From: Blasia pusilla
Taxonomy: Eukaryota
Reading direction: 5' to 3'
Assembly: GCA_050084515.1 (NCBI GenBank)
Contig: CM114271.1
Coordinates: 6,696,001 to 6,760,000, forward strand
Length of the DNA stretch: 64,000 nt
Shown here piece by piece: positions 6,409 to 61,078 of this stretch; the first letter of the stretch is position 1; every line of letters starts with the position of its first letter. The position numbers and the translations under genes are program-made. The notes beneath the pieces are model-generated. The model made no database searches. It was given only the letters and a program-made list of their open reading frames with translations, and was not told the DNA's origin.

Positions 6409-6479
<71 letters not shown>
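6409..6479. repeat. (GA)n microsatellite, ~71 bp
   Basis: Pure GA run seen directly. Confidence 0.98.
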
Positions 6480-9146: not shown

Positions 9147-10592
9147 AGAAGACACTTTGGTAATCCGCTTCTCAATAAGTCATGAAAATCCCATCTAACT
9201 TAAGTTTAAAGTGGGTGGAGTATGTAGAAGAACAAAATTATGGTTAGAATTTGCATTGAAGAAACATGCTTCTTAAGAAGTCATCGAAATCCCTCTCGAT
9301 TGAAGGTTAAAGTGAATGTATTACGTAAAGTACGTGAATAACTGAAGGAGAAGAAAAAGCTATAAATATCATGTTATATATGTGGGGGAGGATGTTGACA
9401 AGGCACCTGAAGTTGTTACTTGGGAATTTACCTCACAGCCATTATGCCAAGATGAATTATGATTGGTATCAATTTCTAGCTCTCACTTCGTACTGAAGCA
9501 AACAAATGCAAAAATTAAATCACTACATAGAAAAGTTATAAGTGCAACTACTTTCAAGATTGAATGTACATCTTCTTCTACGATTGGTTTTACATCAATT
9601 TCCCTTTCGGGATGCTGAAATACCACAACCCAAACTACGAATAGATTGAGCTAAAGAGGAGCTAAAGAGAACAAGAGTTATCAAATGCATGAAAACCAAA
9701 ATCTAGTTGAGTGATCAATTTGATGTTCATGTACATGAAATGAACATAAGTCGCATGTGAGGAAATGAAGTAGCAGAGAGAATAGTTTGAAATTTAAACG
9801 TGAATAGGAGCTACATTAATCCCTTCGATTCAACCTGAGTATGTTATGATCTACCACATTGATTGTAGGCTTGCCTTGTCGTTGCTATTTTAGAACCCAA
9901 TCCATGCAAAGAGGATAGGAATGAGTCTTATTTGATCAAGAGGTCGAATTATCAAGAATTATTGAAAGAAGTGATGATCGTCTTCAAAATTTGTATAATA
10001 CTCGTTTATCTTGGATTGCAGAAATTCACTTACGCAAGGAAATTATCACCATTTTGCTGTAGAACCTCCTCCACAACAACTCTCGCTTCCTCTCGATCTT
10101 TCAACTTCAACCGCACTTGTTCCCAAATCGCGTATCCCCTCTCTGTAGCTGCACCTTCCACGACCACAACTCTCGGAAACCTAGTGAGCTTGCCGATTCT
10201 CTTCCCCTAGCCTTGAGATCATCTAAATGCCCTTACAAATTAGACTTGGACACAAAAAAAATTGCAAGAGGTTGCATCTGTCGTGCGCATACACATCGCT
10301 ACACAACATACATCGTTGTCACCGAACACACACACAAACACGCACGATCCCATGCTAACTCATGGCATCCAAACAACGAGACAAGAAGAACTAAAATATA
10401 TCCAATCGCCCCCCTAGCTGGTGGTTGTGTCCCTCTAACTCCAGATAGCCATCTATCCCTATCTACCATGACATACATCTCTCGGACGCTAAGAGCAAGA
10501 AGGCCGGGTGCTTATGTGGCCCCATCGTTAGTCGCCTTCATGTCATCCATGTCACAAAAAAATTCGAAATCGAAACCTACCTAGTATCTCCT

Positions 10593-11850
10593 CTATGTAC
10601 ATCTAGGACACATCCATCGTCCCCGAGGAACCCTAGTGAGAGGTGGCGTTAGACATGCCATATGCCAACCTCTCGAACATCCATCACAGACTAGCATCGT
10701 GGCCGCACCACAGGCAGAACCACACAACAAACAACACAAGCCTGCACGAACTATTGCTAATCTCGGATCTACTATACCATCAATGTTAGGAAGCTGATAT
10801 GGCGCAAAATTACGCACATGGTCCTTCCATACCATACCATCGCGTCCCTCCAGCAAGGGAACACTTGATGGCAAAACGTCACGCACTCTCAGGATAGTGC
10901 GCCCTGTAGTCACATCCAACGTCGTCGGTGCCGTCTGCTGATAGTAGACATAATCTCCCTGATTAAACCTCCAGATAGTTGGTTGATAACCACCACCCCG
11001 AATAGTCGCATACCTCAACGTATTCCGATGGTGCGCAATTGCCAAGTTCTCGAACACCATGGGCATCACTCTCTGAAACAACTCAGCCGTCTGAGAACAT
11101 GCTGGCATCCATACATCTGGGTCATCAAGGTCCAGCACCTCACCAGCATCTTGAAAAATGGCCGTAGGTTAATCTGGCTCTCGGCCATAAAGTAGCAAGT
11201 ACGGTGAAAAAGACGCTAAGGATGCTTGCCTGCTAAATCTGTATACCATCACCAACTAGGGCAACTGGAGGTCCCAATCTCCTAGGTGACCTCTCTGCAA
11301 GCCATACTTGCGTAAATCCCTCTTCACCGTCTGCACAACTCTCTTTGCTAATCCATCTGCCTCAGGATGATCTCGCGAAGTCGTGCGATGGTCGATCAAT
11401 GCCTGATCACACAAGGCCTGGAACTCACTGCAAAACCTCGGTACCTTGGTCTGTCAATACCTCAACCGGTGCGCCATAATGACTCAACACTTTTTCAAGG
11501 AAGGCATAAGCTACTCCCTCACTCGCTTTGTCAAGCAATGCAACCATCTCGATCCACTTCGAGAAGTTCTCAACCATCACCAACACATAACGACTGTGAA
11601 GCTCCGTCAAAGGCAAAGGTCCTGCAAAATCCAAACTCCATCTTTACCCTAAGCCCATGATCGATAATGGATGCAACTGTGGAGTTGGAGCATTGAACGA
11701 TGTTCGGACCTGATCACACACCATGCACCTGGCAACAAACTGCTGAACGTCAGTTTGCATGCCTCGTCACCAATACTGAATTTGGAGCAAGCTGTACATC
11801 CGCTTCACCCCAAAGTGACCCAACTCCTCGTGGGCATGCTGCACTAGTCG
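10593..11850 (-). pseudogene. Element A integrase (HHCC + DDE) with C-terminal PHD finger
   Basis: HEELGHFG, DFAGP, VLTDQGTE, GLAKRVVQT; ends [45 protein letters not shown] (C4HC3). Confidence 0.9.
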
Positions 11851-12229
11851 TGCTTGTTGCAAAGGATGCGGCACTACGCATATTCTGCCATCTTCCCAAA
11901 CCCTCAAAACATATGTCCCCTCCCAACGGAACCGTCTGGCCCGCTGTAGGATCCGATCCCACTCTCTAGCAGCCACGGTGCTCGCGATGCTACTAGTACG
12001 AAGGTACTCCAAGATTACTCCATCATCATGAATATCTTGGCCACCTGTGGTCTCCTCACTTGCCTCGGGATCCAAGGACTCTCCACTAAACCTCGCCATC
12101 GAAGTGTCCACACTCTGGCTGTCCATAGCCAACATCCCTAAATAGGCTGATGCTTGCCATCCTGGCACTGACTCCTCATCACTCTGTCCATGCCATCAAG
12201 CTCCAGTCGCATCGCGCTGACTCGAGCAT

Positions 12230-13640
12230 GGGTTACGACTCAACCCATCTGCATCCTGGTTGAGCATCCCAGGTCTATGTACCACCTGAAAATCATGCTC
12301 CTGCAACAACAGAGCCCATCTTGCAAGCTTCCTTGTAAGCTTGTCGGATTCCATCAACCACTTCAGTGGTTGATGATCAATGATGATGGTAAAGGGATTG
12401 CCAAATAAGTAATACCTGAAATGCGTGACAACCAAGCACTCACCCTCATATGAGATGTACTTTGCCTCTGCAGCGTTGTTTGAGCGGCTAGCGTAACCCA
12501 CCACAAACTCTCTACCCTCATCATCATGTTGGGTGAGCACCGCTCCAAGCCCCAACATGCTTCAATCTATGTGTAACTGGAAAGGACGCCCCATGATTGG
12601 TCTCCTCAAGATGGGCGCGATGTCAACGTGTCCTTGACCAACTAAAATGCTCGCTCTTGCTCATTCCCCCAGTGTCACTCGTGATCCACCTTGGTCAACA
12701 AGGTCAGCGGCTTTGCAATCGAACTGAATCCCTTGGCGTACCGCAGATAGAAGTTCGCCAATCCTATGAATGCGCAAACACGACTCATATCTGTAGGGCG
12801 TGGAATGCGTGAGATAGCCTCTACCTTTGTTTGCTAAACACCTAGGCCCCTTGGGTATATTGTATGACCCAAGTACTCAATGTGGTTGTAGAAGAACTTG
12901 CACTTGCCTGGATGTAGCTTCAGCCCATGTAATTGCAATCGTCGAAACACCTCCTCTAGATGTCGCTCATGCTCCTCAATCATGGTGCTAAAGACTACGA
13001 TGTCATCAATATAATACCTAGCAAAATCCAGACCAGCCAAGATCCTATCCATGACCCTCTGAAACTCAGCGGGGGCGTTCTTTTACCCAAATGGTAAGAA
13101 CCGCCACTGGTACAAACAATCCTTGCCGTGAGGATTGATGCCCCAAAATGCCGTCTTCTGCGTGTCTTCCAATCTAATATGCACCTGATGGTATCCGCCT
13201 CACAAATCCAATGAATTGAAGACCTTTGCGTGACCAATCGCATCAAAGATCTCCTAAGGGTGGGCATGGCATACCTATTGGACTTTGTCTGCCGATTGAT
13301 AGGTCGGTAATCCCCACACATCCGCCTATCTGTCTAGTTGCCATGCACATCCTTCTTGGCGGGCATGACAGTGGCAGATGCATACTCCCCATGCGACATC
13401 TCCACTAGTCCTGCTCCAACTAAGTCCTGGCTCCTACTCTGAATCAGAGCCCTCTCCATATCACTGTACCTGTAGGGTCGTCGGAAGATCGTCGTATCAC
13501 TCGACAACTCAATGCGGATCCCGGTCCCTTTAGCATACCCAAATCCTCCATGCTAAATGCAAAATAGCTCCTATAACTCCTAAGGAACTGGTGTATTCGG
13601 CGCCGCTATCCTTCTGTCAACTTAGGGCCCATATCTGGCT
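12230..13640 (-). pseudogene. Element A reverse transcriptase and RNase H
   Basis: MCGDYRPIN, YIDDIVVF, KLHPGKCKF, IEYLGH, GLGAVLTQ, DHQPLKWL, LARWALLLQE. Confidence 0.93.
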
Positions 13641-14009
13641 CCCAAGTCTCCATCGTGACTACGGTAGGACTTTCCGGCGCGGATATCGGTGGTTGCTATG
13701 GTGCAACCCCGTCTCAAACAACAACACTCGACCACTCTTCTGCAACCAACTGCAAACTCTGATCTCCTCCACATGCAGTGCCTGGAACCACACTCGATGT
13801 TGTGGCTATCATCTCTTGGCGTACTTGCAAAACATCCCAAGAAGTCCAAGGATGTCTCTCTCAATCTCCCTTGGTGTGTTGATCTCCTTGGGTCTCGCCC
13901 CCAGTCACTGCCTCCACTGTCTCGGTAAGCATGGGGCTCACCAACGCAATCGCTATGATCTGTTGCGATCTCATCCGACGCTGCTCAGCCACTCCCAAGC
14001 TGAAGATCC

Positions 14010-14930
14010 ATGTCAAGCAGTTCAGGTCCATCGCCTGACCCAAGACATGACGTCGTTATGCCTCTGATACTGACGGGACAACCGTCAGTCTTGGGGAAAA
14101 TCCCATCCCCCGCTCTCTCTCGTCGGCATTGGGCCCCACCAACCTCTGAACCTGGTCATCCCAAACCAAACCACGATCGGCCTCCTTGTATGCATAGGAA
14201 GCAGGAAAACTCACAAACGTGGGATAGGCTGCCCGCGGCTTGCCTACCCTGTTGACCACTGTCAACGGTGGTCGATCATCGTGCCTCACTGCCTGTGAGC
14301 AACGACCTGCATCCGGAATGGAATCCATTAACAAATGGGAGGGGCGCTCCACTCTCATATACGCCCTCCGTAACACCGTATGGGGCACCAAGTTGGTCCA
14401 CCATAGACGCGGGCGATGGGCTCTAGAACCTACACTCGCCGCATCCAAGAACATTTCTGGGCCGATCCAAGCATGCACCTGATGAGCACTCGTGACCACC
14501 TGTCACCTAGAGTCTCCTAAGATGGGCACATTCTCCAGAATGTAGGCTAGTGAACGAGATTGGTGCTCTTGCAACTGCCGTAAGACCCTCAACATCTCCC
14601 AAAACAACCTAGACCGAGTATCAGCCAACCCGCTGCCTCATCTAGCATTTGATTGGCCCTGACATGGCCAACCAAAAATGACCAAATCAATGGTCCCTAC
14701 CCGCTCTAAGTCCTGCGCACCCAACAACGAAATATGCCTCGGTAGGGAACTCTGGTATCCCTATACCGCGGACGTAGAAAACATAGGCGTAACTGCGCCA
14801 CATGTCGTAGTGAGATGCATCTTGCAACATCATCACTCTCCACATACAAGTAGTGTTATACTCGCACTCGTGCCTGCAAAACAGTAGGTAACCCGGTGCT
14901 AATCCCTCCAAAGAGATCTAACACTCAGAT
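14010..14930 (-). pseudogene. Element A DNMT3-like C5 cytosine methyltransferase domain
   Basis: Motif I VLDLFGGISTG (~14893-14924), motif IV GWPCQG (14656-14673), RSRLFWEMLR, motif VI YILENV, motif VIII AHRPRLWWTNL, motifs IX/X ERERGMGF...RHVLGQAMD. Canonical motif order, with several premature stops. Confidence 0.9.
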
Positions 14931-15299
14931 ACCCTCCTCCGGGATACACCACACAATGGGGGTGGTATCCAAGGGTGTCATCATAGCACTCCCTGCTACC
15001 TCGGGTTCCTCTGACCCGTCATGCTTTGGTGCAAACGCGTCGCTCCACGCGGTTTGCACGTGCTCATCTGCCAATCGTCGAAGCTCCTCAGTTGAGCCCC
15101 ACAACGACACCTCTATTCCATGGAATGATGCAGCTACCATAACACTCCTCTCCAGGGAAATGTCAAGAACGGGAGTATCCTCTACATGGACATGTCTCTC
15201 AATCAAATCACTAGGCCAAGTGATGGCACTGTTAAATGCTGCTAAGGTCGCCATCTCTCCTGGCCGTTGCTCGATCACTGCACATGTGAATCGAATGGG

Positions 15300-15720
15300 T
15301 AATGAGCTAAGGCGCCCATCACCTGACTGCCATCCTCGTCTGTAGGACTCTGACTCTTCCCAATAATCCATAGAAAACCCCATTGGGTATAACACTGCTC
15401 CACCAACCAAGAGGTCGTAGGACTCTGCATCAGTCACTATCGCCTTGGCTCGTACCAAAGACTCATCTCTAGGATGTCCCGGGCGAATCCTCACCACAAC
15501 CTCTTATTCGGTGATATATTGTGTGGTACTCGCTCCACCCAAGGATGTCTGTACCCGGAATGGACAACGCTCCACATCGGCTCTCGTCAAGCCCAATCCT
15601 CTGAATGACGCTTTCCCCAACATCAAGGGTTGCGCTCCAGAATCCAACAAGACGCGCTGCGGCCTAAAAGTTTTACCTCTGGGACTCACCAACTGGAAGA
15701 CCTCTCCTCTGTTATCTAGC
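15300..15720 (-). pseudogene. Element A aspartic protease
   Basis: RVLLDSGAQPLMLG active-site motif and downstream YDLLVG. Confidence 0.85.
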
Positions 15721-16379
15721 AACACAACACCATGAGAAGCCATGGCACGCTCTATCACGGGTCTAGCGGGCATCTCCGCCATCCTAGCAGCCGCGGCCTG
15801 CCATGAATCTAACGTGGATGGCCCAAGCATCCGCTCCAAGGGCAGGTCCATCAACTCCTCTACAATCACCTATGAATGTGATGCAAGAACTCCAACTCCA
15901 CGCTCACATAGCGTAGCGGCCAGCCGAAAAGCCTCGGCGGGCGTACCCCCCAACATCATAACATCGGAAGCAGAAAATAAAGGAGCGCGGTACACAATGG
16001 TGGCCGCCCCCAACAACGTGCTTGACACATGCCCCTCCTGAGCATCAACAACGGGAGTCTTCGCACTCGCTTCTCCCATCGCCCTCCGTGCCTGCACACC
16101 AACAACGTCACCAACTTTCCTGGAACTTTGATTAGGACCCATCGATGGGGTCCTCATCGCCTCGCACAATGTGGAAGACTGAGGAAGCCTAGTTTGTTTC
16201 CTGGCTTCCCCTCGCTGTGGATCCAACTCTGCGGCTGCTCCACACGTTACAACTACCGCGGCCTCCATTTGGGCAACCTCGCACATCCAACCAGGATCCT
16301 CCATATCTCTAGCTGCTCCATATGATGTCGATGCCACGGATCCGGCATCGGGTAATCTCAATGCCATAGCGGCAATCTG

Positions 16380-17748
16380 CTCCTATATCTGATGTATCTG
16401 AGCAGCCATCCTAGCCTCACGCCTGGCATCTCCCTCGATGCATCTAGGTGGTAGGACTCTACCTCCTCCACGGGCAGCTCGACCACCCTGTCGGGCAACT
16501 CCAGCTCCTTGTCCCCCAACGGGACCACTTGGTGCACGATCTCTAGCCCCACCCAGATTGGCTACTCGCTCTGGTGCCCTCTTTGGCCCTTGGTCCAGAC
16601 GTAACTCAGGATGTAAACTGAAACACCTGGCGAGTGTATGACCATACCTCTGATAATAGTCACATTGATAACCTCCTGGTGCAGCACCATCTCCTCCTCC
16701 ATGCTGAGGCACATGTCCATGACCCTGACGAGTGCAATCGCGTTGATGATGGACTCCACCACATGACCAACAAGTAATAGTAGGAAGCTATTGCTGAGCC
16801 GCATATGAAGGCACAAGTCTCTGTGGCATGCCAAGCCTCCCGATATCCTCCTTGAGCTTGTGATGCCACAGTCGACCTATCTCAGAGTCCACGTTGCTCC
16901 ACATGTAGTGCAGACAATTGTGACTGCTCTCGCCTAGAACCCATGGTGGCTACGCTCTCCTCCGCCATGTTGCGCTCAATTTTTTTGGCGGTCCTAAAAA
17001 CATCTCTCAACATAGGGGAGGTGTTTATAAGAAGCACCCTCTCCCACACCCGTGTCCGCAGGGTCCGATCCAGCATCGCGTACCATGACTGGATAGCGTG
17101 AGCCTCTATCACCCCTTGAGTGACGTTGATCAATTGGCGCAAGCGAGTGTAAGCATCACACAAACTCTCACGCGGGCGCCTCTGGAAGTCCTGGATGCTC
17201 CGCAACTTCTCCGTCCGTACCCCCTAGTAGCTTGCCCTCAACTCAGCAAAGAACTCAACCACAGGGTTGAACCTGGGACGAACCCGACTAGACGGTGCAA
17301 CTGCTCTCGTGCGAGTGACCCCTCCTAAAACATCACTATTGGAAGAGGAAGTAGCCTCTCCTGACTCCTCCTCCTCATCTGGGAACGGCTCTGTCCATGA
17401 TACATAATATGGGTCATAGTAGAGCCTCCACACCTTGATCTCAAGTGCATATCTTTGATAGAACTCATGGTAATCGTCCATAGGCGCCCCCTCTAAATGC
17501 TGGAACATACCGTTCCATGCTATAAACAGGTTGAACTCTCTAGAGTTCCTGGTCCGCTGGGAGTCGCACCATCTCCTAAACTCTACTATGAAATTGTGCA
17601 ACTCAATCGTGCCTACTTCACCTGAAAACCTACACGGTCCTTTACCCCGATCGTCCATCTCGTACGCCCAACTTGTAGGACCACTCACAATGTGTGGTGA
17701 TGTGCTCACAAACTCCTCTACATGCTCCCTCTCGTCTGAAGACGACAC
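16380..17748 (-). pseudogene. Element A gag (capsid-like plus two Zn knuckles)
   Basis: RFSGEVG..FQHLEG..FQRRPRESL.DAYTRLR gag-like motifs; CWSCGG.HHQRDC and CDY.QRYGHTLARC knuckles; Gly/Arg-rich tail. Confidence 0.8.
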
Positions 17749-18607
17749 AGAAGGAGATCGAGGTGGTCTCTCACGTGGAGACCCTCAAAATCTCGCACCA
17801 CTCCGGGTAAACCCTCCAGAGCTACTCTGAGGTCCACTACCTCGCCTCTCAAAATCTTGAAAGGATGCCGTGATGGCCCTCGTGCCCTTCTCACACGATC
17901 ACTCTCAACCTCGCGAGTAATCCCTCAATCACTCATCCCAAACATGCGGCACTCCATCTACACTCTCCCTCCTTGAGATGTGTAACGTGCGGCAACAAGC
18001 GCCGTGGTGGGGCGAATCGACCAGGCTATCATCTCATCGACAACCTACCCTCAACTTCGGACATCCCACGCAGGTGTATGTCCCCTAAACCACATACATA
18101 AATGATGCTCTCAGCATCCACACACCCAATATCCCCAAAATAACTACCCAAATCCCAAAATCCCTCACACGTGCAGGATAAAGGACCAGAATGGGTAAAC
18201 TGAACACATGTCGATGTCACTCCTCAGCAACTGCAAATCTCGACCCCAACTCGGTCATGGAGACAACTCCACCAATCAGCAAGTCATACTCCTCCCGTAC
18301 TGACACTGCTTAAAACTCCTTGATGGATAGTGCAGTTCCAACGGAACGGTGCGGCGTTGCCGACGGCACCGAAGGGCTACAAACGGCACGGCCCTCGATG
18401 GTGGGATGCGGCACTCGGCGGCATACCCTCCTCAATCAACAATAAACCCAGACTCTACTCCATAATGATGGTGCGGCTCCGCGATCGAGAGACGGTGCGG
18501 TACGGCCACGAGCAGCACGGCACGGTACTCGATTGTCGTCGAGCGGCTACCAATCACAACATAGCAGCATGAAATCAAAACTCAAACACCATAACCAGAT
18601 GTTATCA

Positions 18608-18690
18608 GATTTCTAGGGTTAAATTGTTCAAACCCTAAACCGCCGGCGTGGCGGTTGGTTTAGGGTTTGAACAATTTAACCCTAGAAATC
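18608..18690. repeat. Perfect 34-bp inverted repeat (15-nt loop) containing AAACCCTA telo-box-like motifs
   Basis: GATTTCTAGGGTTAAATTGTTCAAACCCTAAACC (18608-18641) is the reverse complement of 18657-18690. Confidence 0.95.
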
Positions 18691-19845
18691 GCCTAGCAAT
18701 GGCAATTTTGCAAGATTGACCATAACGTTGTACTCGCAACTCCAAATTGCGCACCATTTGTTACACAGCCTGCACAGCTTTACAATCTACAACAACGTCA
18801 AAAAATATTTGGAATTGGACATTCCAGTAAAAACTGACGGGGATTGTCATAAAGCCCAATGTCTCTTTCTCCTACACAAAATTTGGCAGCGCTTCCGCGC
18901 TGATTTCTCCCAACCAAAACCTTCTCCCAAGCTCTCTCCATGGTAACCTATTCTCCCAAGTCACCTCCTTGGCTCTTGACCTAATGTAGGAGGTCAAGGG
19001 CCACTTACCAAAAATAGAAAATCGATCATATACTTAAAATGGTACTTACCTAAAATAGTAAGTTCCTCAATATGGCTCCAAATGAGCCGAAACGAACGGG
19101 AAACCTGCTCTCTCAAGTTTCCCGGGGCCTCAGCATGTCATCCTCAACCTGCTGAGCGTGTCCTAGACTACTCACAAAGGGGCTCTACTAGATCTCACCA
19201 ATCTATCCTAAAAGACGTGACACATCAGTTGGAAGTTGACATTGGAAGGTATCATCAATCCCGCCATATTATTTGCTTATCCATTCCCATGAGTTGTACA
19301 ACATTATCAACCTTGCCAAATTAAATTTGAAATATGTATGTTAGGATCGTCCTTACAAGGTTTACTCTCTTACCTAGTGTGTCATACTCTGAAATTTGTG
19401 AGATGATGATGTAGGCTCGTTTCCCTTATTAAAGTCATACTCGGCACTTGTACAACCACATTCTCATCCTCCGCTTTTGCCATAGAAATTGCCTACACAT
19501 TCCAATGTAGATCCAAGATCCTGATTCATATTAGTTCCATTTATTTGACAAATGGCACAAAATCAACACATCTTTCATCTATGAAGAGTCTAAAGACTCT
19601 ACAGATCGAGATGTAGATGGAGTTGAAGTAATACATAATTATATGCTAGTTAGAACTAGTTGGGTAGTTAAAGAACCAAAATTTATGATACAGATTGTAA
19701 AATATCTTCTACATTGCTCTATAATCAAGTTGAATCCACCATAATTATTTCTGAATGATTCTCGTGTCCCTTTTCCATCGCTTTACGATTCCACTTTTTT
19801 CCCATATTCCGAAAGGCAATTGACATAACACTCTGTTCATATGAG

Positions 19846-27965: not shown

Positions 27966-28066
27966 CGATCTTTGAGGGGACGAGAGTGAGCGAGCGGGTT
28001 GAGAGAGACGATCTTCAAGGGAACGAGAGCGAGCGGGTTGAGAGAGTCGATCTTCGAGGGGACGAG
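27966..28066. repeat. ~40-bp direct repeats (2.5 copies) at the end of a GAGCGAG-rich tract
   Basis: CGATCTT(T/C)(G/A)AGGG(G/A)ACGAG..GAGCGAGCGGGTTGAGAGAG repeated. Confidence 0.8.
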
Positions 28067-28083
28067 GGGTGAGGGAGGGGACG

Positions 28084-28310
<227 letters not shown>

Positions 28311-29557: not shown

Positions 29558-30208
29558 TGTCGTGCGCATACATATTGCTACACAACATACATCGCTCGTC
29601 ACATCTACACCACACAACACCGATCTTCCCCACACACGGGTCGATCCACACATGTAAAAAAATCAACTCATACATATACATGGAGATCACACAACAAAAA
29701 TAAAGAGTAGTAAAAATGGCACACCCGACATAAAACTCCACTCCTCAATCTACATCGGCATATCGAGACTCGTCCACCTTGTGCTATCAAGGAATCCGGA
29801 CGCTAGCACCCTAGTCCTAGCTCACACACATACAAGGGAGGTGCTCCAACGGCCCAACATGAGAAAGATGGCTTAGGAAAGCCATCTTCCTCTCTTATAT
29901 AGGGTTGGGAAGAGCCAAAAGGCTCTTCCCCTAAAAAAAGTTGTCAGAAACAACGTTCCTGACACAATGAACCTATCCTCAAACTCATCCGACACCATGG
30001 GACAAAGTTACACTCAAGATAGTCCGTTGGCTCCTATGCCCTATCCACGATAGATCTCGGCCTATCGACTACTCAGATGTGACAGTTGTCGTGCGCATAC
30101 ATATCGCTACACAACATACATCACTCGTCACATCTACACCACACAACACCGATCTTCCCCACACACGTACAAAAATCAACTCATATATATACATGGAGAT
30201 CACACAAC
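29558..30208 (-). repeat. Element B 3' terminal block B1-AC-A2-B2
   Basis: On the + strand GTGACA-GT-TGTCGTG lies at 30079-30093, with the B segment duplicated on both sides of A2. Confidence 0.93.
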
Positions 30209-30287
30209 CGGGCCCCTAGGTGGTTGTTGGATCCCCCCAACTCCAGATAGAAAATATCACATCTCTCTGACACGACCTACTACCCTA

Positions 30288-31440
30288 TACACATCTCGGA
30301 CACATCCATCATCCCGTGGGAACCACATCAAGAGGGGGGGTCAGACATGACATATGCCACCCTCGAGAACAACCATCACATACCAACATGGTGGCTGTAG
30401 CCCTCGCAGATCCGCACAACATACACCTCAAGCCTGCAGGTACCACTGCCAAGCTCGGATCCACCGTCCCATCTACGTTCGGAAGATGACATGCTGCACA
30501 ATTGTGCACATGATCCTTCCAAACTATACCATCCCGTCCCTCCAACATGAGGACTCCGGTCGGTAATACCTTGCGCACACGTAGGATCGTGCGCCCTGTA
30601 GTGACATCTAGCGTCGTGGGTGCCGCTTGTTGTAAATACACGTAATCTCCAGGATGAAACCTCCTAATCCCTGGATGATAACCTCCTCCACGAATGGTCG
30701 CGTACCTCAATGTATCTCTATGCTGGGCAATAGCTAAGTTCTCAAAGGCCATAGGCATAACTCTACGAAAAACTTCTGCCCTCTGAAAACATGCTTGTAC
30801 CCACACATCTGGATCATCAAGATCTAACATCTCCGCCATGTCACGTCGAATCGTTGAAGGTAAATCTGGCTCTCTCCAAAAGAGCAAAAAGTACGGTGAA
30901 AATGACGCCAAGGATGCCTGCCGACTAAAGCGATAACCCATAGCCAACCATGGCAACTGTAGGTCCCACTACCTCAACTGTCCCCGCTGCAAGTCATACT
31001 TGCGCAATCCTCTCTTCATCGTCTGTACCACTCTCTCCGCCAACCCATCCGCCTCAGGATGATCTCTGGACGTGGTGCGGTGATCTATCAGCGCCTTATC
31101 ACACAAGGCCTGAAATTCTCCCCTAAACTTGGTACCCTGGTTAGTCAACACCTCCGCCGGTGCACCAAAGTGACTAAGCACACGATCTAGAAACGCATAA
31201 GTTGTTCCCTTGCTTGCCTTGTCTGGTAGTGCCACCAACTCTATCCACTTGGAGAAATGCTCCACCATGACCAACACGTACCTATGATGACGCCTTGTCA
31301 ATGGCAAAGGTCCCGCAAAGTCTAAACTCCACCGATAACCTAAACCCATAATCGGCAAAGGATGTAACTGCGGAGTGAGAGCATTGAAGGATACTCGCAC
31401 TCTGTCACATACCATACATCTGGCCACAAACTCACTAGTG
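30288..31440 (-). pseudogene. Element B integrase with C-terminal PHD finger
   Basis: [54 protein letters not shown]. The His pair of the HHCC region appears deleted near 31460. Confidence 0.9.
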
Positions 31441-31579
31441 TCCACCACTATAGTCATCACCTATGGTTGACCTGCCATAGTCAACCAACAAAGATAGGCA
31501 GATGCATGCCTGCCGAGCACCATCTCCTCATCACTCTCTCCGTGCCATCGAGCTCCTGTGTCATCTCTCTGACTCGGAC

Positions 31580-33020
31580 ATGGGTTACGACTCAACCCAT
31601 CCGCATCCTGGTTCAGCCGACCTGGCCTATGAACCACCTCAAACTCATACTCCTGTAGTAACAGAGCCCACTTGGCAAGCTTTCCCATAAGCTTGTCGGA
31701 CTCCATCAACCACCTCAACGGCTGATGATCAATGATAAGTGTGAAAGGGTTGCCGAATAAATAGCACCTAAAATATGCCACGGTCCACACTGCAGCCAAG
31801 CACTCTCCCTTGCAGGAGTTGTACTTTGCCTTTGCAATGTTGTTCGATCAGCTTGCGCAAGCCACAATGAACTCCCTCTTCTCGTCATCCCTCTGAGTAA
31901 GCACTGCTCCTAGACCCAACATGCTCCAATCCGTATGTAACTGGAATGGGCGACCCCTAACCGGTCTCTGTAAAATGGGTGAGGACGTCAACCTGTCCTT
32001 GAGCTCCTGAAATGCTTGCTCCTGATCATCTCCCCACAACCACACCTGATCAGGTCTCGTCAACAAGGTCAAAGACTTTGCGATCGCACTAAAATCCTTG
32101 ACATATCGTCGATAGAAGTTTGCCAGTCCAAGAAATGCTTGGAATCGACTTACATCTGTAGGGCGTGGAATATGCGCAATAGCCTTTACCTTCGTCTGCT
32201 GAACGCCTAACCCACTCGGGTATATGGTGTGTCCCAAGTACTCAATCTGCTCCTGAAAGAATCTGCACTTGCCTGGATGTAACTTCGGTCCATGTAACTG
32301 CAATCGCCGAAACACCTCCTCCAAGTGTCGCTCATGCTCCTCAACCGTGGAACTGAAGATAAGAATATCATCTATGTAACATCGCACAAAATCCAAGCCA
32401 GCCAGAATCCTATCCATCACTGAACTCTGCAGCGCATTCTTCAACCCAAATGGTAAGAACCGCCATCGATACAAGCAATCTCTCCCGAACCGATCTATCC
32501 CCCCGAATGCTGTCTTCTCCCTGTCTTCCAACCTGATAGGAAGCTGATAATAGCCAGCATGGAGATCTAAAGTATTGAAGATCTTTGCATGCCCTACCGC
32601 ATCAAAGATCTCCTCTGGAGTAGGCATGGTGTACTGATCTGACCTCGTCTGTCGGTTGATAGGACGGTAATCTCCACCCATCCGCCTATCTGTCCAATTA
32701 CCATACATATCCTTCTTCGCCGGCATGACTATGGCAGATGCATACTCCCCATGTGATAACTCCACAAGTCCTGCCTCCAACAAGTCTTGACTCCTGCTCT
32801 GAATCAAGGCTCGCTCCATATCAGAATACCTGTAGTGTCGACGAAAGATCGGCGTATCACTAGCCAACTCAATTCGTATCCCGGGACCCTTCAGCGTACC
32901 CAAGTCTCTCATACTCAAGGCAAAACAACTGACATGCCCTTTCAGAAACCTATGAACTCGCCATCGCTCTCCTCCTATCAACTTGAGACCTATCACAGGC
33001 TCCCAAGTCTCCATCATGAC
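31580..33020 (-). pseudogene. Element B reverse transcriptase and RNase H
   Basis: 396-aa ORF 31848-33038 with DYRPIN, LPFGLKNA, CYIDDILIF, FLGLANFYRR, FQLHTDWS. Confidence 0.95.
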
Positions 33021-33329
33021 CTCACTCGGAGAGGACACAACCTCCGGCTTTGGTTGCTATGTAGCAATCCTAGCCACCTCCGCAACAGCCACTCCACTAT
33101 GACCTCCTACACCATGCTCCACATCCAAAAAATGAACATGTGCTACTCTAGCCGCCAGCACTTTACTCTGCTCGAGAACGACGCCCCAGAAGTCCATGGG
33201 TGCCTATCTCTCCTCGTCTCGCCCCACCAATGCCTCAGACCCGTAGAGGGCAATGGTCCAACTCGTGGGCGTGACGGCATGGATGACACTCGCATCCGTC
33301 TCTCCCGCCAGCCATACCTAGGCCGACTA

Positions 33330-34270
33330 TCCATGTGAGATAGTTGAGGTCCATGGCGCCTTAACACTGTCTCCGGGATGCCTCGGTCATCCCTCGCACC
33401 GCCGTAGTACCGGTAGTGAATCCATGGGCGCTCGCGCATCATCTGCTGAGGCTCCTCCAATGCTCCGGTCACCTCATCCCAAATCATGCCTGGCCCTCCC
33501 TGACGAAAGGCATGGGATGCTGGGAAGCTCACCAACGTAGGTAAGGCTGCCCTCAACTCCCCCACCCTATTGGCCATGTCCAACGGTGGTCTATCATCCC
33601 GTGTCACCACTTGAGATCGACGCCTTGAGCCCAAAATAGCATCCACTGTGAGATGTGGTGCTCTCTGGACTCCACCGTATGCTTGACTCAGTTCCTCTGA
33701 TGGTATTAGGTTGGTCCACCACAGTCGTGGACGATGGGCACGTGACCCAACTCTCGCTGCATCTAACAACACAGCAGGTCCCAACCAGGACCTCACCTGA
33801 TGTACACTCGCCATCACACGTGCACGAGTGTCTCCCAATAACGGCACGTTCTCCAAAATGTACGCTGCAGAACATATTTGACTCTCCTGCAAGTGTCGTA
33901 CTACTCGCAGCATCTCCCAAAACATCCTTGACCTCGGATTGTGCAATCCAAATCCTCGGCCAGCTGATGAATGACCCTGATATGGCCATCCAGAAATAAT
34001 CAAATGAATGGTGCCAACTCAATCCAGATCCTGCGCCCCCACCAAAGAGATGTCGGCGGGTAGCGTATGCTGATATCCCCGTACTGCAGATACCGGCAAC
34101 AACTCAGGATACCTCTAGAACAATCTTGCCACGTGACGTAATGATACTGGCCATGCGGTCTCATCTCTCTCCACATAAAGGTACTGATACACCCGTATGC
34201 TTGCCTGCAATAGTGCAGCCAATCCGGTGCTAATCCCTCCGAAGAGATCTAACACCCTAACACCCTTCTC
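33330..34270 (-). pseudogene. Element B DNMT3-like C5 cytosine methyltransferase domain
   Basis: VRVLDLFGGISTGLAALL..YLYVE; IISGWPYQG (catalytic Cys mutated, TGT to TAT); PRSRMFWEMLR; YILENV; GSRAHRPRLWWTNL; EEP. Confidence 0.9.
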
Positions 34271-34599
34271 TGGGCCTTGCAACACAAGAGGTGTGATATC
34301 CAGTGGGGTCAACATCTCCACTCTAAGAGCCCGATCGCCACGGGACTCTCCCTGCTCTGGGACAAAAACATGACTCCACGCCTGCCTCACGAGGTCGTCG
34401 GCACTCCTATGTAGCTCCCGAGTCGTACCCCACAATGGTGAAGAGGCCTCGCCAACATGGGAAGAGACACCCGCCATGGCGTGTCTCTCCGTGGGACTAT
34501 CCGCTGCTGGGACATCCTCCGCATGTGCGTTCCCCTCCAGCAACTCTCCTGGCCAACTAACACTACCTGTGAAAGCTGCCAACGTGGTCATAGACTCGC

Positions 34600-35122
34600 C
34601 TCGTGATCGACCACCTCATCCCGCAAACTACATGGGTAACTGACTCATCCGGCCGTCACCTGACCGCCATCCTGGCCGATAAGTCTAAACGGTCTCCTCC
34701 CAGAAGTCAAGGATGAATCCTAGGGGATATAACACTGTACTCCCCACCAACACATCGTACGACTCAGCTGGTGTCGTAATCGCATGTGTGCGCACCATAG
34801 CACTATCCGTCGCATGCTCTGGCTGGATTCTGACAACAATCTCCTGTCGAGTCATATACTGAGTGGGTCATACGCCCCCAATCGAGGTCTGTATCTGGAA
34901 GGGACAAGGCTCAATGTCGGCCTTCCATAACCCCCACGCTAAACACGCCGCCTTCCCTAACATCAAGGGTTGCGCTTCTGAATCAAGTAGGACGCGCTGC
35001 GGGTGGTATACTGTCCCCGTCGGACTAACCAAGCGAAATACTCCAGCTCGGTTATCCAGTAACATTACTCCAGGTGTCACCACTGCTCGCTCTATGGCCG
35101 GTCGAGCTGGCATATCTACCAA
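34600..35122 (-). pseudogene. Element B aspartic protease
   Basis: RVLLDSEAQPLMLG (DSG changed to DSE) and YDVLVG; colinear with element A. Confidence 0.8.
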
Positions 35123-35749
35123 CTTTGCCGCTGCCGCATGCCATGACTATGTGGGGAACGTCCCAAGCACCGGCTCTGAGGGCAAGTCCACCACCTCTTC
35201 AACTACCTCTGAACAAGAAGCAATCATCTCTCCACGCTCACACAACGTGGTGGCCAACCGGAACACCTCAGTTGGTCCAACTCCCAACGTCGCCAACTCT
35301 ATGGCCGAAAATAGTGGAGTCTGACTCACTCTGGTGGCCACCTCCAACACTATGGTCGACACTGACTCCACTCGAGCGGGCATAGGAGTTGTCACTCCAA
35401 CTCCTCGTGACGTCGACGTAGGTGCCTGAACTGTAGGCACCGCTGGTTGTCGAGCCACCATCGATGGTGTGTGTAGTGCCTCCGACAATGTGAATGACTG
35501 TGGAACCCTGGCCTGCCGCCCATCGGTCCCCTCTGGTGGGTCAATCTCAACTCCACCTCTCGATGGCTTGGTGCCTCTCGCAGCACCCCGAGTCACCACT
35601 GCAGCTGCCTCAACCTGGGCTGCACTACACATAAATCCCATACAGGCGAGATCCTCACCTGGGTCGGGGTAAGAGGTAGAAGCCGAGTCACACTAGCCGC
35701 TCGCGACTCCGTGCCTTCCCTAAGCTGCATCATCGTCATGGCAGCAATC

Positions 35750-37126
35750 CTCTACTCCAACTGATCGATGCGTGAGAGAAGTGCCGGCTCTGGTGCTCCT
35801 GCTCCATCTCCTCTGGCTGGTGGTGGTCCTCTACCACCATTTCTAAGAAGAACTCCCCGACCTCCTCCAGGATGACCGCCCCCAGGCCCTCGGCCTACCT
35901 CTGGACGTGCCCCTCGGCGAAGGTCAAAACAGCCATCCCTAGTGTAACCATATCTGTGGCAATGGTCACACTGGTGTTGTGGTGGGGCCATCCTCTGTGG
36001 CTCCTGAGCAATCGGAGGCACTGGTGGTCCTCTCCCATGCTGTGGGCAGTCTCTCTGCCTATGGGCCCCTCCACACGTCCAACAAGACCACATCGGTCCC
36101 TGCTGGGCAACATATGTAGGTACGGGTCATTGCCTCATAGGCTCACGATACCCGCCCTGCTCTCTAGGCACACTCGCCCGCTCTCGTGGTACTGGTGCTC
36201 GCTGTGGCACCTGTGGGGTCACCGTCGCTCGTGGACCCATCGATTCTTGAGAAAATCCAGGGGTCACTACTTGCTCCTCACTCATGTTGAGCTCAATACG
36301 CTCAAACAACTCAAAGACCACCTTCAATGTGGGCTTCGCTGTGTGAATCAGCACCGCATCTCGGACTCTCCTCTGTAGTTCTCGGTCCAGAACCCCGTAC
36401 CAATAGTGGACTGACTGCGCCTCAGTCACTCCAAACGTAGCAATGATCAGCCTCCTCATGTGTGTGAATGCCTCTCTCAGACTCTCTCCTGATCGTCGCT
36501 GAAAATCTCAGACTCTTGACTTGTCGGTAAATGCGTGACGCCTGGTAGCTCTTCCCCAACTGTCGAAAGAACTCCATAGTGGGGTTGAAGCTAGGTGGCC
36601 CTCTACCACCAGAGGTCTCTGCCACATCGCCTGTCTCACTGCCCTCCTCTCCATCTAGTCTCCGGGATGATGGTGTGGATCTCTCTCCTCTCACAATCCC
36701 ATCATATGCCTCGCGACCACTAGTGGACACATACCCTGGAGCCCAATACATCCTCCAAGCATCGATCTCTACTGAATATAGTGATCAAAACTCCATGTAG
36801 TCATCCATCGGAGGACCCTCCAAGTGCTGGAACAACCCCTTCCATGCCATGAAAGGATTAAACCGTGTCAGGGTCTGTATCTCCTGGAAGTCGCACCATG
36901 TGTCGAACTCATGGATAAAATCATCTAAGTCGATGGTGCCCACTGCACCCGAGAAACGACGCATGCCCGGATGGCCCATGTCAACCATCTCCTGCCAAGT
37001 ACTACTGTCTCTGTCTGTGATCTCGTCACCAGACCCAATGTCCAGTGATGACGATCCAGCCACGGATGGATGTCGAAGGAGCTCCTCACTGGTAACCCCT
37101 CGGTATCTCACTCCACTCTGTGTCAC
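35750..37126 (-). pseudogene. Element B gag
   Basis: RFSGAVGTIDLDDF..FQHLEGPPMDDY; knuckles CWTCGGAHRQRDC and CDHCHRYGYTRDGC. Confidence 0.8.
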
Positions 37127-38169
37127 ACCACTACTACTACACGCACTACCCCGTTCTTCGGAACCCTGGAAGAACGCCGTGATGAAAAATCCTGTCTCAC
37201 CCGCTCAAGCACTCAGACTTACCGAGAGTCTCCTACACGCCTCACTATCTCACCTATGCTAACATCAATCCTGTGATAACATACCCGGCCTCACGCACGC
37301 TCAACACTCAGGCTCACCATGAGCCTCCCAACTGACTCACCTAACCTAGCGACACTCTCTCGGGTCATACACGCGACCCCTACTCGGCAACCGCCGTATA
37401 TCCACCAACATGCTACACATGAAAAGAATCTACACTCATCACCATCACTGCACCCATCTAGCACCAGCTAGTACCCGATACCCAGCACTCTCAATCACAC
37501 ACGACAAGTGTGGGAAAAGGGACTCGAATGGGTAACCTCATCACGCCCTCCAACCTACTGCATCGTCAACATGCACTCCTCCACATGATATGACAATCTC
37601 CGCAACACAACACTCTCCTGGACCAACACGTTGATCCTCCCGTCAACAGATGCGGAAAACCCGTCGGCTTCATGCACACTGCCCCTCCATCGTCAACTCT
37701 CGCAATGCCTTGTCGCGTCCCAAACATCATGTCAGGCACGCTGTCCAACTATGTCGGTCACTCACAACGTCAAAATAAATGGGGAGGGGGCGCGCACTCT
37801 ATCGCGCGCCCCATCTCGGGAGGGGTGCGCCGCCGCCGCCCGCCGCCTGCCCCGCCTATCGCTGTCGCCGCCGCCGCCGCGTCGGCCCCATCGCCCGTCA
37901 GATCTCTTTTCTTCTCTCTCTCGACATCCTCACTCGCGTACACCCGACGCTCCACCACACACTACACTCGGCTGTTGTCCCGCGTCAGTCCGTACCAGCA
38001 AAATCTGAGAAAAACGGACAGCGCTTCCGCCCACGGCCTTCTAAACAGAAAAATGAAAAACACCCGCAACACACGCATCTCCTGGGGCTCCCGACCAAGG
38101 CAACTCGCTTGCCTACCTGCAAACAACGAATTCCCACCACCCCCTTGACATTTTTCTCATGTGAAAATT

Positions 38170-38641
38170 AAGAGTAGTAAAAACGGCACACCTGGCCTAA
38201 AACTCCACTCCTCAATCTACATCGGCATATCGAGCCTCGTCCACCCTGTGCTATCAAGGAATCCGGACGCTAGCACCCTAGTCCTAGCTCACACACATAC
38301 AAGGGAGGTGCTCCAACGTTCAACATGAGAAAGATGGCTTAGGAAAGCCATCTTCCTCTCTTATATAGGGTTGGGAAGAGCCAAAAGGCTCTTCCCCTAA
38401 AAATAGCCCTCCCCTTGGTAACCTGCGTGCACAGTTTACCAGGGGCGGGTGACCTGGTCAACAAGTCACCCGATTGTAAAAGACCACAACATAAAAGTTG
38501 TCAGAAACAACGTTCCTGACACAATGAATCTATCCTCAACCTCATCTGACACCGTGGGACAAAGTTACACTCAAGATTGTCCGCTGGCTCCTACGCCCTA
38601 TCCACGATAGATCTCTGCCTATCAGCTTCTCAGATGTGACA
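38170..38641 (-). repeat. Element B 5' repeat A1 (U3/promoter-like, TATA flanked by hairpins)
   Basis: Near-identical to 29703-30084 apart from a ~90-bp indel; minus-strand CCCTATATAAG at ~38360-38370. Confidence 0.9.
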
Positions 38642-40253: not shown

Positions 40254-40299
40254 GGGTTGTTTGAATTATTCTTGAGAAAGTTTTTTTGAAGAGTCTTCA

Positions 40300-52524: not shown

Positions 52525-54479
52525 TGTCACATCTTTTAGGGTAGATCGGTGAGATCTAGAAGAGCGCCTTCGTGAGTAGTCCAGGACACGCTCAGTAGGC
52601 CAAGGATGACATGCTGAGGCCCCTAGAAACCTGAGAGAATAGGTTTTCCCTTCGTTTCGGCTCATTTGGAGCCATATTGAGGAACTTACTATTTTAGGTA
52701 AGTACCATTTTGAGTATATGATCGACTTTCTATTTTTGGTAAGTGGCCCTTGACCTCCTACATCAGGTCAAGAGCCAAGGAGGTGACTTGGGAGAATAGG
52801 TTACCATGGAGAGAGCTTAGGAGAGGGGAGGGGTATACCTCAAGGAGAGAGAGCTTGAGAGCTCATTCTCTCTTTGTTGAACCTCTTGGCATGAGGCGGC
52901 GGAGCTATGGTCCCTTGCCTTGTGAGTATAACCCAAGCCTCTCATTAGGAGAGTGGGTTTGGTTTGACATGAGAGAGAGTGCACACCTTTGAGAGCCATG
53001 GTGTGAGATGGTGTAGAGAGAGATTGGATCATACTTTACAAAGAGAGAATAAGAGAGTGAGAGAGCCTCATGGGGGAGCTCGCTGGTCACTCGCTGTTTT
53101 TGCAGGTTGGGGACCGTGTTCCCCGTTCAGCGGCTCATGGGAGTGCTCACCAAAGCAAGGGTTGTTTTGATTGTTCTTTGCATTTGCTGATTTTTCGTGT
53201 GGAAGAGTGGCGCGCGGAAGCGTTGCCCAATTTCTGATAGGGATTGATTATGGTCAATCTTGCAAAATTGCCATTGCTAGGCGATTCTAAGGGTTAAATT
53301 GTTCAAACCCTAAACCAGCCACCACGCCGGCGGTGGCCGTCGTCGTCACCGGTCAACGGTCAACCATCAGTGTCAACAGTCCACCGTCGGTTGTTGCCAT
53401 TGCCGAGCCTTGCTCAGAGCTGCATTCGGCCATTGTCCATCCTCTGGTTGCCATTGCCGCCATTACGAAGTGGAGGGTCTTCCACGACCACCATTGATTC
53501 TCTGACTTGCGCCGCCACCACGTACTTTGGTTTGGCCGCCACCATCATCGTAGTTTTGTCATCAACCACCGATGGTAGATGACTTCCGGTTATGGTGTTT
53601 GAGTTTTGATTTCATGCTGCTATGTTGTGATTGGTAGCTGCTCGACGACGATCGAGTACCGTGCCGTGACGCCCGTAGCCGCAACGCGCGGCCGATTGCC
53701 ATGTCGTGCCGCTCCTGGCCGCACCACACCGTCTCAATCACGGAGCTGCACCGTCATTGTGGAGCAAAGTGTGGGTTTATTGTTGATTGAGGAGGGTATG
53801 CCGCCAAGTGCCGCATCCCACCATCGAGGGTCGTGCCGTTCCGTGCCGCCTGCAACACCGCACCGTTCGCTGGAACCGCACTGTCCATCAAGGAGTTTTA
53901 AGCAACGTCAGTATGGAAGGAGTATGAATTGCTGATTGGAGGAGTTATCTCCACGACCGAGTTCGGGTCAAGATTTGCAGTTGCTGAGGAGCATCATCGA
54001 CATGTGTTCAGGTTACCCATTCTGGTCCTTTACCCTGCACGTGTGAGGGATTCTGGGATTTTGGTAGTTTATTTGGGGATATTGGGTGTGTGGATGCTGA
54101 GAGCTTCATTTATGTATGTGGTTTAGGATGTCCGGAGTTGAGGGTAGATTGTCGATAAGATGATAGCCTGGTCAATTTTCCGCACCACGCCGCTTGTTGC
54201 CGCACGTTACACGTCTCGAGGAGGGAGAGTGTAGATCGAGTGCTGTATGATTGGGATAAGTGATTGAGGGATTACTCGCGAGGTTGAGAGTGATCGTGTG
54301 AGAGGGGTACGAGGGCCATCACCGCATCCTTTCTGGATTTTGAGAGGCAAGGTGGTGGACCTGTTAGTAGCTCTGGAGGGTTTACCCGGAGTGGTGCGAG
54401 GTTTCGAGGGTCTCCACATGAGAGATCACCTCGATCTCTCACGTGTGTAGAGGAGTTTGTGAGCACATCGCCACACATT

Positions 54480-60182: not shown

Positions 60183-61078
60183 AGGAGATACTAGGTAGGT
60201 TTTGATTCCAAATTTTTCTGTGATATGGATGACAGGAAGGCGACTAACGATGGGGCCACATGAGCATCCGGCCTTCTTGCTCTTAGCGTTTGAGAGATGT
60301 ATGTCATGGTAGGTAGGGATAGATGGCTATCTGGAGTTAGAGGGACCTAACCACCAGCTAGGGGGGCGATTGGAGATATATTTTAGTACTTCTTGTCTCG
60401 TTGTTTAGATTCCATGAGTTAACATGGGCTCGAGCGTGCTTGTGTGTGTGTTCGGTGACAACGATGTATGTTGTGTAGCGATGTGTATGCGCACGACAAC
60501 CGTTACGTCTTTTAGGATAGATCGGTGGGATCTAGTAGAGCGCCTTTGTGAGTAATCGAGGACACGCTCAATAGGTCGAGGATGACGTGCTGAGGCCCCG
60601 AGAAACCTGAGAGAACAGGTTTTCCCTTCGTTTCGGCTCATTTGGAGCCATATTGAGGAACTTACTATTTTAGGTAAGTACCATTTTGAGTATATGGTCG
60701 ACTTTATATTTTTGGTAAGTGGCCCTTGACCTGCTACATCAGGTCAAGAGCCAAGGAGGGGACTTGGGAGAATAAATTACCATGGAGAGAGCTTAGGAGA
60801 GGGGAGGGATATACCTCAAGGAGAGAGAGATTGAGAGCTCATTCTCTCTTTGTTGAACCTCTTGGCATGAGGCGGTGGAGCTATGGTCCCTTGCCTTGTG
60901 AGTGTAACCCAAGCCTCTCATTAGGAGAGTGGGTTTGGTTTGACATTTAGAGAGAGTGCACACCTTTGAGAGCTATGGTGTGAGATGGGGTAGAGAGAGA
61001 TTGGATCTTACTTTATTGGAGATATTTTAGTACTTCTTGTCTCGTTGTTTGGATGCCATGAGTTAGCATGGCATCCAA

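Follow-up and report, generated by a model that had tools for sequence, protein, structure and literature searches.

We describe a retrotransposon, here named E2, that occupies positions 29558-38641 (minus strand) of a window of 64,000 nucleotides (nt) from Blasia pusilla (assembly GCA_050084515.1, contig CM114271.1, positions 6,696,001 to 6,760,000 of the forward strand). E2 is a Ty3/Gypsy-type element with a DDE integrase, and its direct repeats are split into two segments, A and B, in the order A1-internal-B1-A2-B2. The same layout is found in a second family of the window (element E3) and in related metagenome loci, among which 4-bp target-site duplications (TSDs) enclose the whole unit. 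The integrated form is probably a circular permutation of the reverse-transcription product, formed by Ty3/Gypsy-type elements of a streptophyte lineage; the cutting and joining steps are inferred and may follow each other in either order.

Split direct repeats serve as a diagnostic character of tyrosine-recombinase retrotransposons, to which they are ascribed, in line with the original prediction for this DNA, in the accessible parts of PMC8969392 and PMC8557442. Here they occur on DDE-integrase elements with target duplications, and classification by repeat topology alone would therefore misfile these elements. Programs that seek two equal long terminal repeats (LTRs) would probably delimit them wrongly; that standard programs would overlook them, as the original prediction held, is plausible.

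Layout and coding content of E2

Repeat finding and direct reading of the minus strand show A1, an internal region of about 8 kb, B1, the dinucleotide AC, A2 and B2 in this order (Table 1), with no B before or after A1. The boundaries first proposed for E2 hold almost to the base, including the TGTCAC start and the CACGACA end. A1 and A2 are 92.6-95.5% identical in two blocks, and about 86 nt at 38407-38492 are extra in A1 relative to A2. B1 and B2 share 94-98% identity in two ungapped blocks, or 85.6% when a 16-nt indel is counted.

A Pfam scan of the open reading frame (ORF) pieces gave the domain order C-5 DNA methylase (DNMT), reverse transcriptase (RT), RNase H, rve integrase core and C-terminal PHD finger. 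The sequence RT (PF00078), RNase H (PF17919/PF17917) and DDE integrase (PF00665) is that of a Ty3/Gypsy pol region, and intact relatives additionally carry PF17921 with the integrase. The placing of the split layout on a DDE-integrase element is thereby borne out by RT, RNase H, integrase and PHD finger. RT, RNase H and PHD domains were also found in E3, with no DNMT match in the six E3 ORF pieces scanned. No chromodomain (PF00385) was found; the PHD finger (PF00628) occupies that C-terminal place. A tyrosine recombinase (PF00589), for which the original prediction had advised a domain scan, was detected neither in 26 ORF pieces (18 from the window and eight upstream pieces from related loci) nor in four long ORFs of related loci and six database proteins.

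Proteins of Calypogeia fissa (74% identity) and Marchantia polymorpha (63-69%) match the E2 RT piece best; those of Sphagnum and Klebsormidium nitens (46%, P0025) come next, and a bryophyte host is probable on these grounds. Going by the names of these protein matches, the lineage seems to extend from Klebsormidium to liverworts and mosses. The DNA methylase has two placements within this one lineage: upstream of the RT in E2 (33803-34009), in locus L064 and in Marchantia-like proteins (among P0007, P0008, P0010 and P0019); in L048, whose 2034-aa ORF is intact, it follows RNase H and precedes the integrase.

Occurrence of the layout

E3, reported earlier as element C, has the layout of E2, as had been claimed, and its A2 is 94.4% identical to its A1. 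The A segments of E2 and E3 gave no blastn match to each other. Between the two window families only the final 36-45 nt of B can be aligned (91-97% identity; E2: 30087-30122 and 29558-29602, minus strand; E3: 60455-60499, plus strand; E1: 10279-10322, minus strand); the remainder of B and all of A cannot. This conserved B end contains a short internal repeat, twice GATrTGTATG in the window families and twice GTCAyGACA in the common metagenome type. Comparison of the window with itself revealed a third copy, E1, which had gone unnoticed in the original prediction. It belongs to the E3 family (86-88% identity to E3) and consists of A-internal-B only.

Metagenome contigs were scanned with a profile of 17 relatives. 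Of the 80 loci obtained, 49 allowed A and B to be placed with blastn. B-A-B stands directly behind pol in 27 of the 49, ten of these with A1 8-10 kb upstream. In 14 loci B is present without A2-B2 despite downstream DNA; four show B-A followed by the contig end, a truncated B2 or a rearrangement; three hold A1 only, on contigs that end before the 3' end of the element; one is unclear. The layout A-internal-B-NN-A-B, NN being a two-base spacer, is the rule in a lineage that covers at least four repeat sequence types, and the earlier contention that E2 is not a one-off rearrangement is upheld. Ordinary AB...AB copies with two LTRs, which had been named as a finding that would overturn the proposal, were seen neither among the mapped loci nor among the window copies. 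The mirror permutation, with B upstream of A1 (A-B-NN-A-internal-B), is likewise absent from the 21 loci with A1 and from the three window copies.

The census bears on two further explanations of the layout. Tandem dimers (A-int-B-NN-A-int-B) could be the primary product, with the second internal region lost later; locus L073, where about 134 nt from the 3' end of the internal region, polypurine tract (PPT) included, remain between A2 and B2, is what such a history could leave. No dimer occurs in the 49 loci, 26 of the 27 B-A-B loci have no internal sequence between A2 and B2, and the joint lies at the B start and within a few bases of the A end (exceptions L015 and L053/L055), where independent deletions would not land; this origin is very improbable. 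The short form A-internal-B might itself be the transposing unit, excised at both junctions from linear cDNA or from a one-LTR circle, the long copies then being occasional incomplete cuts. The 14 short loci together with E1, and perfect 4-bp duplications in four of six testable short copies, agree with this. The long form is commoner (27 against 14), recombination between B1 and B2 gives the short form with the same duplication, and the short unit has no downstream R or promoter-proximal A, so its RNA could not finish reverse transcription. On balance we consider a short transposing unit improbable.

Among the B segments of loci L004-L078 the nearest relative tends to be the B2 of another locus (15 of 21 for B1, 18 of 20 for B2), and decay appears to be faster in B1 than in B2 copies. 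In a nearest-neighbour test on the decayed copies the own partner was nearest for 7 of 48 B and 8 of 18 A segments; the sole outcome of this test is that B1 and B2 are not separate lineages.

Integration ends and target duplications

Every copy read begins with TGTCA at the A start and ends with GACA at the B end. For 15 testable elements the four bases before the TG of A1 were compared with the four after the CA of the terminal B. Seven have a perfect duplication, namely three of nine long copies (L006 AAGG, L038 CCTT, L043 ATAA) and four of six short copies (L002 TACA, L041 TTTT, L068 ATGG, E1 GATG); three more, all long, match at three of four positions. By our arithmetic the chance rate is about 0.005 per element, or about 0.07 perfect matches in 15. 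Because seven lie far beyond chance, the whole A1...B2 unit was inserted in one DDE-type event. Termini of the form TG...CA with 4-bp duplications are those of Ty3/Gypsy elements, E2 itself being without a duplication.

An ordinary LTR element next to an unrelated solo LTR, or a local rearrangement, had been named as a way in which the original prediction could fail, and the lack of a matching duplication in E2 would suit it. The duplications flank the A1 start and the terminal B end and so enclose the whole unit, not A2-B2, and in the copies read the four bases before A2 never equal those after B2. A separately inserted A2-B2 was therefore rejected. With the same layout in two window families and 27 metagenome loci, this explanation is refuted by the census and retains practically no probability. 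A route by tyrosine recombinase, with a closed circle entering the target through site-specific recombination as in DIRS/Ngaro-like elements, would explain the repeat topology and nothing else. It is highly improbable, given a DDE integrase, the absence of PF00589 from every piece scanned, and TG...CA termini with 4-bp duplications, which DIRS-type elements are described as lacking.

Reverse-transcription signals and transcription

The bases directly after A1 are perfectly complementary over 10-17 nt to a segment inside A that lies 128-176 nt before the A end and starts 31-35 nt after a conserved TATA box. A complement of at least 10 nt occurs in 11 of 23 A1-bearing elements, a match reached by 0-5 of 300 shuffles. 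Segment and putative primer binding site (PBS) exist in four covarying versions: TTTCTCATGT/ACATGAGAAA in E2, ATTCTCTCTTTGT/ACAAAGAGAGAAT in E3, a 17-mer in L006/L012, and TAGTTTTTCTAGAATT/AATTCTAGAAAAACTA in the commonest type. The pairing bears the signature of self-priming of the Tf1 type, and the segment stands where a transcript would be expected to start. A PBS of the tRNA type was not found, and there are no tRNA genes in the window. An initiator-Met PBS motif has no match in the elements in their sense; window-wide there are 4 matches (2 mismatches) against 5.5 expected, one of which falls in the RNase H part of E2 but on the other strand.

A G-run, GGGGGGGG or TAGGGGGGCG(A), stops exactly at the first base of B1 in every relative read. 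It is decayed in E2 and intact at the corresponding place in E3, E1 and relatives. B2 begins at the same base as B1, the base where the G-run ends. To judge from the sequence, the position is that of a PPT beside the start of U3. A PBS after the upstream repeat and a PPT before the downstream repeat are the arrangement of Ty3/Gypsy elements.

Two RNA runs of the same species label were aligned to E2 at 90% likeness. First mates lie mostly on the plus strand across the internal region, which for most stranded libraries would correspond to element-sense RNA. The pol half is covered to a depth of about 5-23, the 5' half to about 0.4-8. Some reads, of the E1/E3 family, span B end, AC and A start (loose ends of 25+40 and 79+71 reads at 30075/30079), and those anchored on the conserved B end continue into the A start on one side and into B on the other (77 and 156 loose ends at 30122). 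Transcription therefore covers the B-NN-A junction, in keeping with a place in U3. The GT-rich B2 might act as a downstream poly(A) element for A2. RNA joints of A1 with A2 and of B1 with B2 were treated as mapping ambiguities between repeat copies.

The two junctions

The spacer between B1 and A2 is exactly 2 nt long in 22 of 24 displayed loci (AC 8, GC 7, AT 5, GT 2), and the remaining two represent a single degenerate locus that was assembled twice; AC also stands in L019, E2 and E3. The B end and the A start form a short inverted repeat across it, CATGACA/TGTCATG in the common type and GACA/TGTC in E2 and E3.

The A2-B2 joint, by position, is the place where the two ends of reverse transcription are joined. 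It is precise in the type of E2, E3, L004, L006 and L019, and ragged in the common type, where joints of five different lengths (-3 to +1 nt) were seen among the copies displayed or aligned; it is the first bases of the PBS that vary. Oddities are a duplication in L015, an 18-nt filler in L053/L055, and in L073 about 134 nt of the internal 3' end including the PPT. The junctions of retroviral 2-LTR circles show similar raggedness and insertions derived from PBS and PPT. B1-NN-A2 looks like something copied through RNA, and A2-B2 like two DNA tips newly joined.

A templated origin was also considered. In a two-repeat template-switching scheme the RNA would run from A1 into B2, the minus strand would start after B1 on NN and the A2 start, and B would act as a second R from which synthesis jumps to B2; the internal B1-NN-A2 would then serve to complete the ends, a step proposed for Ngaro/PAT, and a linear A...B2 cDNA with integrase ends would be made directly, with no end joining. 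The identical topology of Ngaro/PAT, the strong conservation of the B end between families and the RNA coverage of the A2-B2 region fit such a scheme. It leaves the covarying self-primer site after A1 and the G-run before B1 without a role, there is no conserved primer site after B1 beyond TGTCA, and a templated copy would not yield the variable PBS-proximal bases, the filler and the PPT-containing insert at A2-B2. Template switching is accordingly regarded as unlikely.

Proposed route of integration

For the permutation that we favour, the following course can be proposed. Transcription would start about 32 nt after the TATA box inside A, and the first 10-17 nt of the RNA, as pairing and covariation suggest, would pair with the bases directly after A1 and prime the minus strand. 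The plus strand would be primed at the G-run PPT directly before B1. Since the PBS stands directly after A1 and the PPT directly before B1, the LTR of reverse transcription would be B-NN-A, and the linear product [B-NN-A]-internal-[B-NN-A]. The integrase-type ends, the A start (TGTCAy) and the B end (CAyGACA), would thus not lie at the DNA tips; they would face each other within each LTR, always 2 nt apart, as a short inverted repeat. The integrase may cleave the near-palindromic junction of the left LTR like a restriction enzyme, an activity that HIV integrase has been shown to have on the U5-U3 junction. The outer tips, A2 end and B start, would be joined end to end, either earlier, as in a circle of the 2-LTR type, or later, by host end joining after a two-ended insertion. 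The resulting insert would be A1-internal-B1-NN-A2-B2, with the tips meeting between A2 and B2, plus a 4-bp target duplication. Copies of the A-internal-B form such as E1 may have arisen by cutting of both junctions or by later recombination between B1 and B2; the data fit either. Timing might make the process one-sided: after the second strand transfer the left junction would be double-stranded and the right one single-stranded while plus-strand synthesis proceeds across about 8-9 kb.

The unusual step would be integration, not replication. Precedents exist in retroviruses: tetramers of HIV-1 integrase make an internal cut in the palindromic U5-U3 junction (PMC1905944), and integrase can re-linearise 2-LTR circles and then integrate them (PMC4372172). 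A bolder version, which we put forward only tentatively, is that internal-junction integration is obligatory throughout a streptophyte Gypsy lineage, the integrase acting like a restriction enzyme on a built-in palindromic junction, the tips of reverse transcription being sealed together and the provirus being a permuted cDNA.

Several observations weigh against the permutation. The missing mirror product needs an added assumption, and the cutting and joining steps are inferred, with no intermediate seen. Twelve of the 23 elements have no perfect primer/PBS match of at least 10 nt, which could reflect decay, all copies examined being old and decayed, or a weaker rule. E2 is flanked by TCCA and AACA, which do not match, and no matching duplication was found in L008, L047, L020 and L062 either. 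The raggedness of the A2-B2 joint could in part be inherited sub-family differences and not fresh joining. Transcript start and poly(A) were not located in the RNA, where the four begin or end places listed have 5-7 molecules each. The 5' 4 kb of the decayed copies gave no Pfam match of any kind, Gag and protease included, and a protease was recognised only in the distant locus L040. Lastly, the same locus was seemingly assembled twice in three cases (L047/L049, L053/L055, L016/L017), which slightly inflates the counts.

If the proposal is true, a natural element family integrates mainly by internal cleavage of an abutted-end junction, and it could then serve as a study system for an activity debated in retroviruses as a side activity. 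On the bolder version these elements would be the DDE-integrase counterpart of the Ngaro/PAT solution, and split direct repeats would report integration topology and not a tyrosine recombinase. The lineage also bears a DNA methylase and a PHD finger.

Relation to known elements

The original prediction had seen in E2 a Gypsy lineage with a different replication route, possibly undescribed. The Gypsy lineage, the Ngaro-like topology and the absence of a tyrosine recombinase stand; the novelty of the replication route and of the layout is not supported as worded. The replication signals, a self-priming PBS after A1 and a PPT before B1, are conventional for the Tf1/sushi type, and the layout is already given for a Gypsy element with a DNMT in a figure legend (Fig. 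4c) of de Mendoza et al. 2018 (PMC5890265). There the repeats of KnitGypsy-Dnmt3 from Klebsormidium nitens are said to be arranged as in DIRS elements, an arrangement which the legend of Fig. 1e gives as 'A-coding region-B-A-B'. The passages of that paper on KnitGypsy-Dnmt3 contain no termini, TSD, PBS, PPT or mechanism. What is in print, in the parts of the paper available, is thus the layout in one sentence, without a mechanism. E2 and its relatives share with KnitGypsy-Dnmt3 the Gypsy-type polyprotein, the DNMT in the pol region and the DIRS-like repeats; they differ in that liverwort proteins are closer to the E2 RT than the nearest K. nitens protein.

In the literature searched the name KnitGypsy-Dnmt3 was found in PMC5890265 only. 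A search on split direct repeats with retrotransposon, Gypsy or integrase gave, by titles and abstract starts, work on tyrosine-recombinase elements, overviews of transposable elements, guides to their curation and papers on other subjects, with no split repeats on a Gypsy element, and nothing was found on LTR retrotransposons with PHD finger and integrase in Marchantia or on palindromic circle-junction cleavage in LTR retrotransposons. Nor did this literature yield the spread to bryophyte elements, their target duplications and self-priming, the place of the PPT or an interpretation as permuted LTRs.

Self-priming is known from the Tf1/sushi group and, according to the available part of Neumann et al. 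2019 (PMC6317226), is predicted for the plant Tcn1 clade. The present elements resemble this group in a PBS complementary to their own RNA start, not to a tRNA, and in the order RT-RNase H-integrase; they have permuted repeats and a PHD finger where Tf1/sushi elements have two ordinary LTRs and a chromodomain. With Ngaro/PAT elements, as treated in parts of PMC8969392 and PMC8557442, they share the A1-internal-B1-A2-B2 topology with the ends abutted at the internal B-A junction; those elements have a tyrosine recombinase and are described without TSDs, in contrast to the DDE integrase and 4-bp TSDs found here. In retroviral 2-LTR circles abutted integrase ends also form a near-palindrome that an integrase tetramer can cleave internally (PMC1905944 and PMC4372172, in part). 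There the ends become abutted only via circularisation, as a side path, whereas here they are built into the LTR and the ends of reverse transcription would be joined instead. Transposon circles of the bacterial IS3/IS911 type likewise have inverted-repeat ends abutted a few bases apart, which a DDE enzyme cuts before insertion; these are DNA transposons that lack an RNA intermediate and are not homologous to the present elements.

Features of the window

Table 1. Positions of the elements and their features in the 64,000-nt window
Feature	Position	Strand	Remarks
E2 repeat A1	38163..38641 (38641->38163)	-	5' end of element; TGTCAC start at 38641
E2 TATA box TATATAA in A1	38361..38367	-	paired segment starts 35 nt after
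E2 putative mRNA 5' segment TTTCTCATGT	38323..38332	-	10-nt perfect complement of 38153-38162; 3/1000 and 5/300 shuffles reach match
E2 putative self-priming PBS ACATGAGAAA	38153..38162	-	directly after A1 end
E2 C-5 cytosine DNA methylase fragment	33803..34009	-	PF00145, E 9.8e-06; ORF piece 33143-34018; upstream of RT
E2 reverse transcriptase	32223..32684	-	PF00078, E 6.1e-24
E2 RNase H	31647..32036	-	PF17919 and PF17917; split by in-frame stop, two adjoining ORF pieces
E2 DDE integrase core	31056..31337	-	PF00665, E 4.1e-13
E2 C-terminal PHD finger	30327..30425	-	PF00628, E 8.8e-08
E2 decayed polypurine tract TAGGGGCCCG	30209..30217	-	adjoins B1 start
E2 repeat B1	30087..30208 (30208->30087)	-	ends CACGACA
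E2 two-base spacer AC	30085..30086	-	B1 end to A2 start, abutted integrase-type ends
E2 repeat A2	29696..30084 (30084->29696)	-	
E2 A2-B2 joint	29696/29695	-	
E2 repeat B2	29558..29695 (29695->29558)	-	3' end of element; CACGACA end at 29558
E3 repeat A1	52525..53038	+	
E3 putative mRNA 5' segment ATTCTCTCTTTGT	52865..52877	+	12-13 nt perfect complement of PBS
E3 putative self-priming PBS ACAAAGAGAGAAT	53038..53050	+	0/1000 and 1/300 shuffles reach match
E3 polypurine tract AGGGGGGCGA	60360..60369	+	adjoins B1 start
E3 repeat B1	60370..60498	+	
E3 two-base spacer AC	60499..60500	+	
E3 repeat A2	60501..61015	+	start decayed to CGTTAC
E3 repeat B2	61016..61071	+	broken off after about 56 nt, hence without CACGACA end
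E1	10279..19222 (19222->10279)	-	E3 family; A-internal-B only
E1 TSD GATG, 5' side	19223..19226	-	
E1 TSD GATG, 3' side	10275..10278	-	

All three window copies are broken by stop codons and frameshifts. In E1, A1 stops at 18920, and the stretch that in E3 holds the primer segment, the A end and the PBS region (about 52828-53205) is missing; about 190 nt at 18726-18919 (minus strand) stand in its place, with only partial likeness to the E3 leader. The elements form GC-rich islands (50-56% GC) in a background of 32-45%. Between E2 and aligned reads or contigs transitions prevail (T>C 116-121, C>T 44-129, A>G 66-75, G>A 41-99), each transversion occurring only 5-23 times.

Within the E2 leader, at 37646-37966, the word depth of DNA contigs falls from thousands to 2.5 (X1) and 216 (X2); this part of the leader is peculiar to the copy or to a small sub-family. 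An open frame at 38638-38900 (plus strand) forms the 5' flank of E2; it is rich in E, K and A and of coiled-coil type. RNA matches in this flank are confined to 38638-38680, where reads continue to either side into other sequence (77-113 and 59-76 reads; agreement 0.96-1). These reads probably stem from an expressed paralogue or repeat family. A tandem array at 39558-40254, close to the upstream side of E2 by window coordinates, has a 112-nt unit in about six copies, 85-91% alike. A long simple-sequence array at 28001-28360 has a reported spacing of 8-12 nt, while Blast offsets suggest a 2-nt unit, and a stretch of 71 nt at 6409-6479 carries the same repeat.

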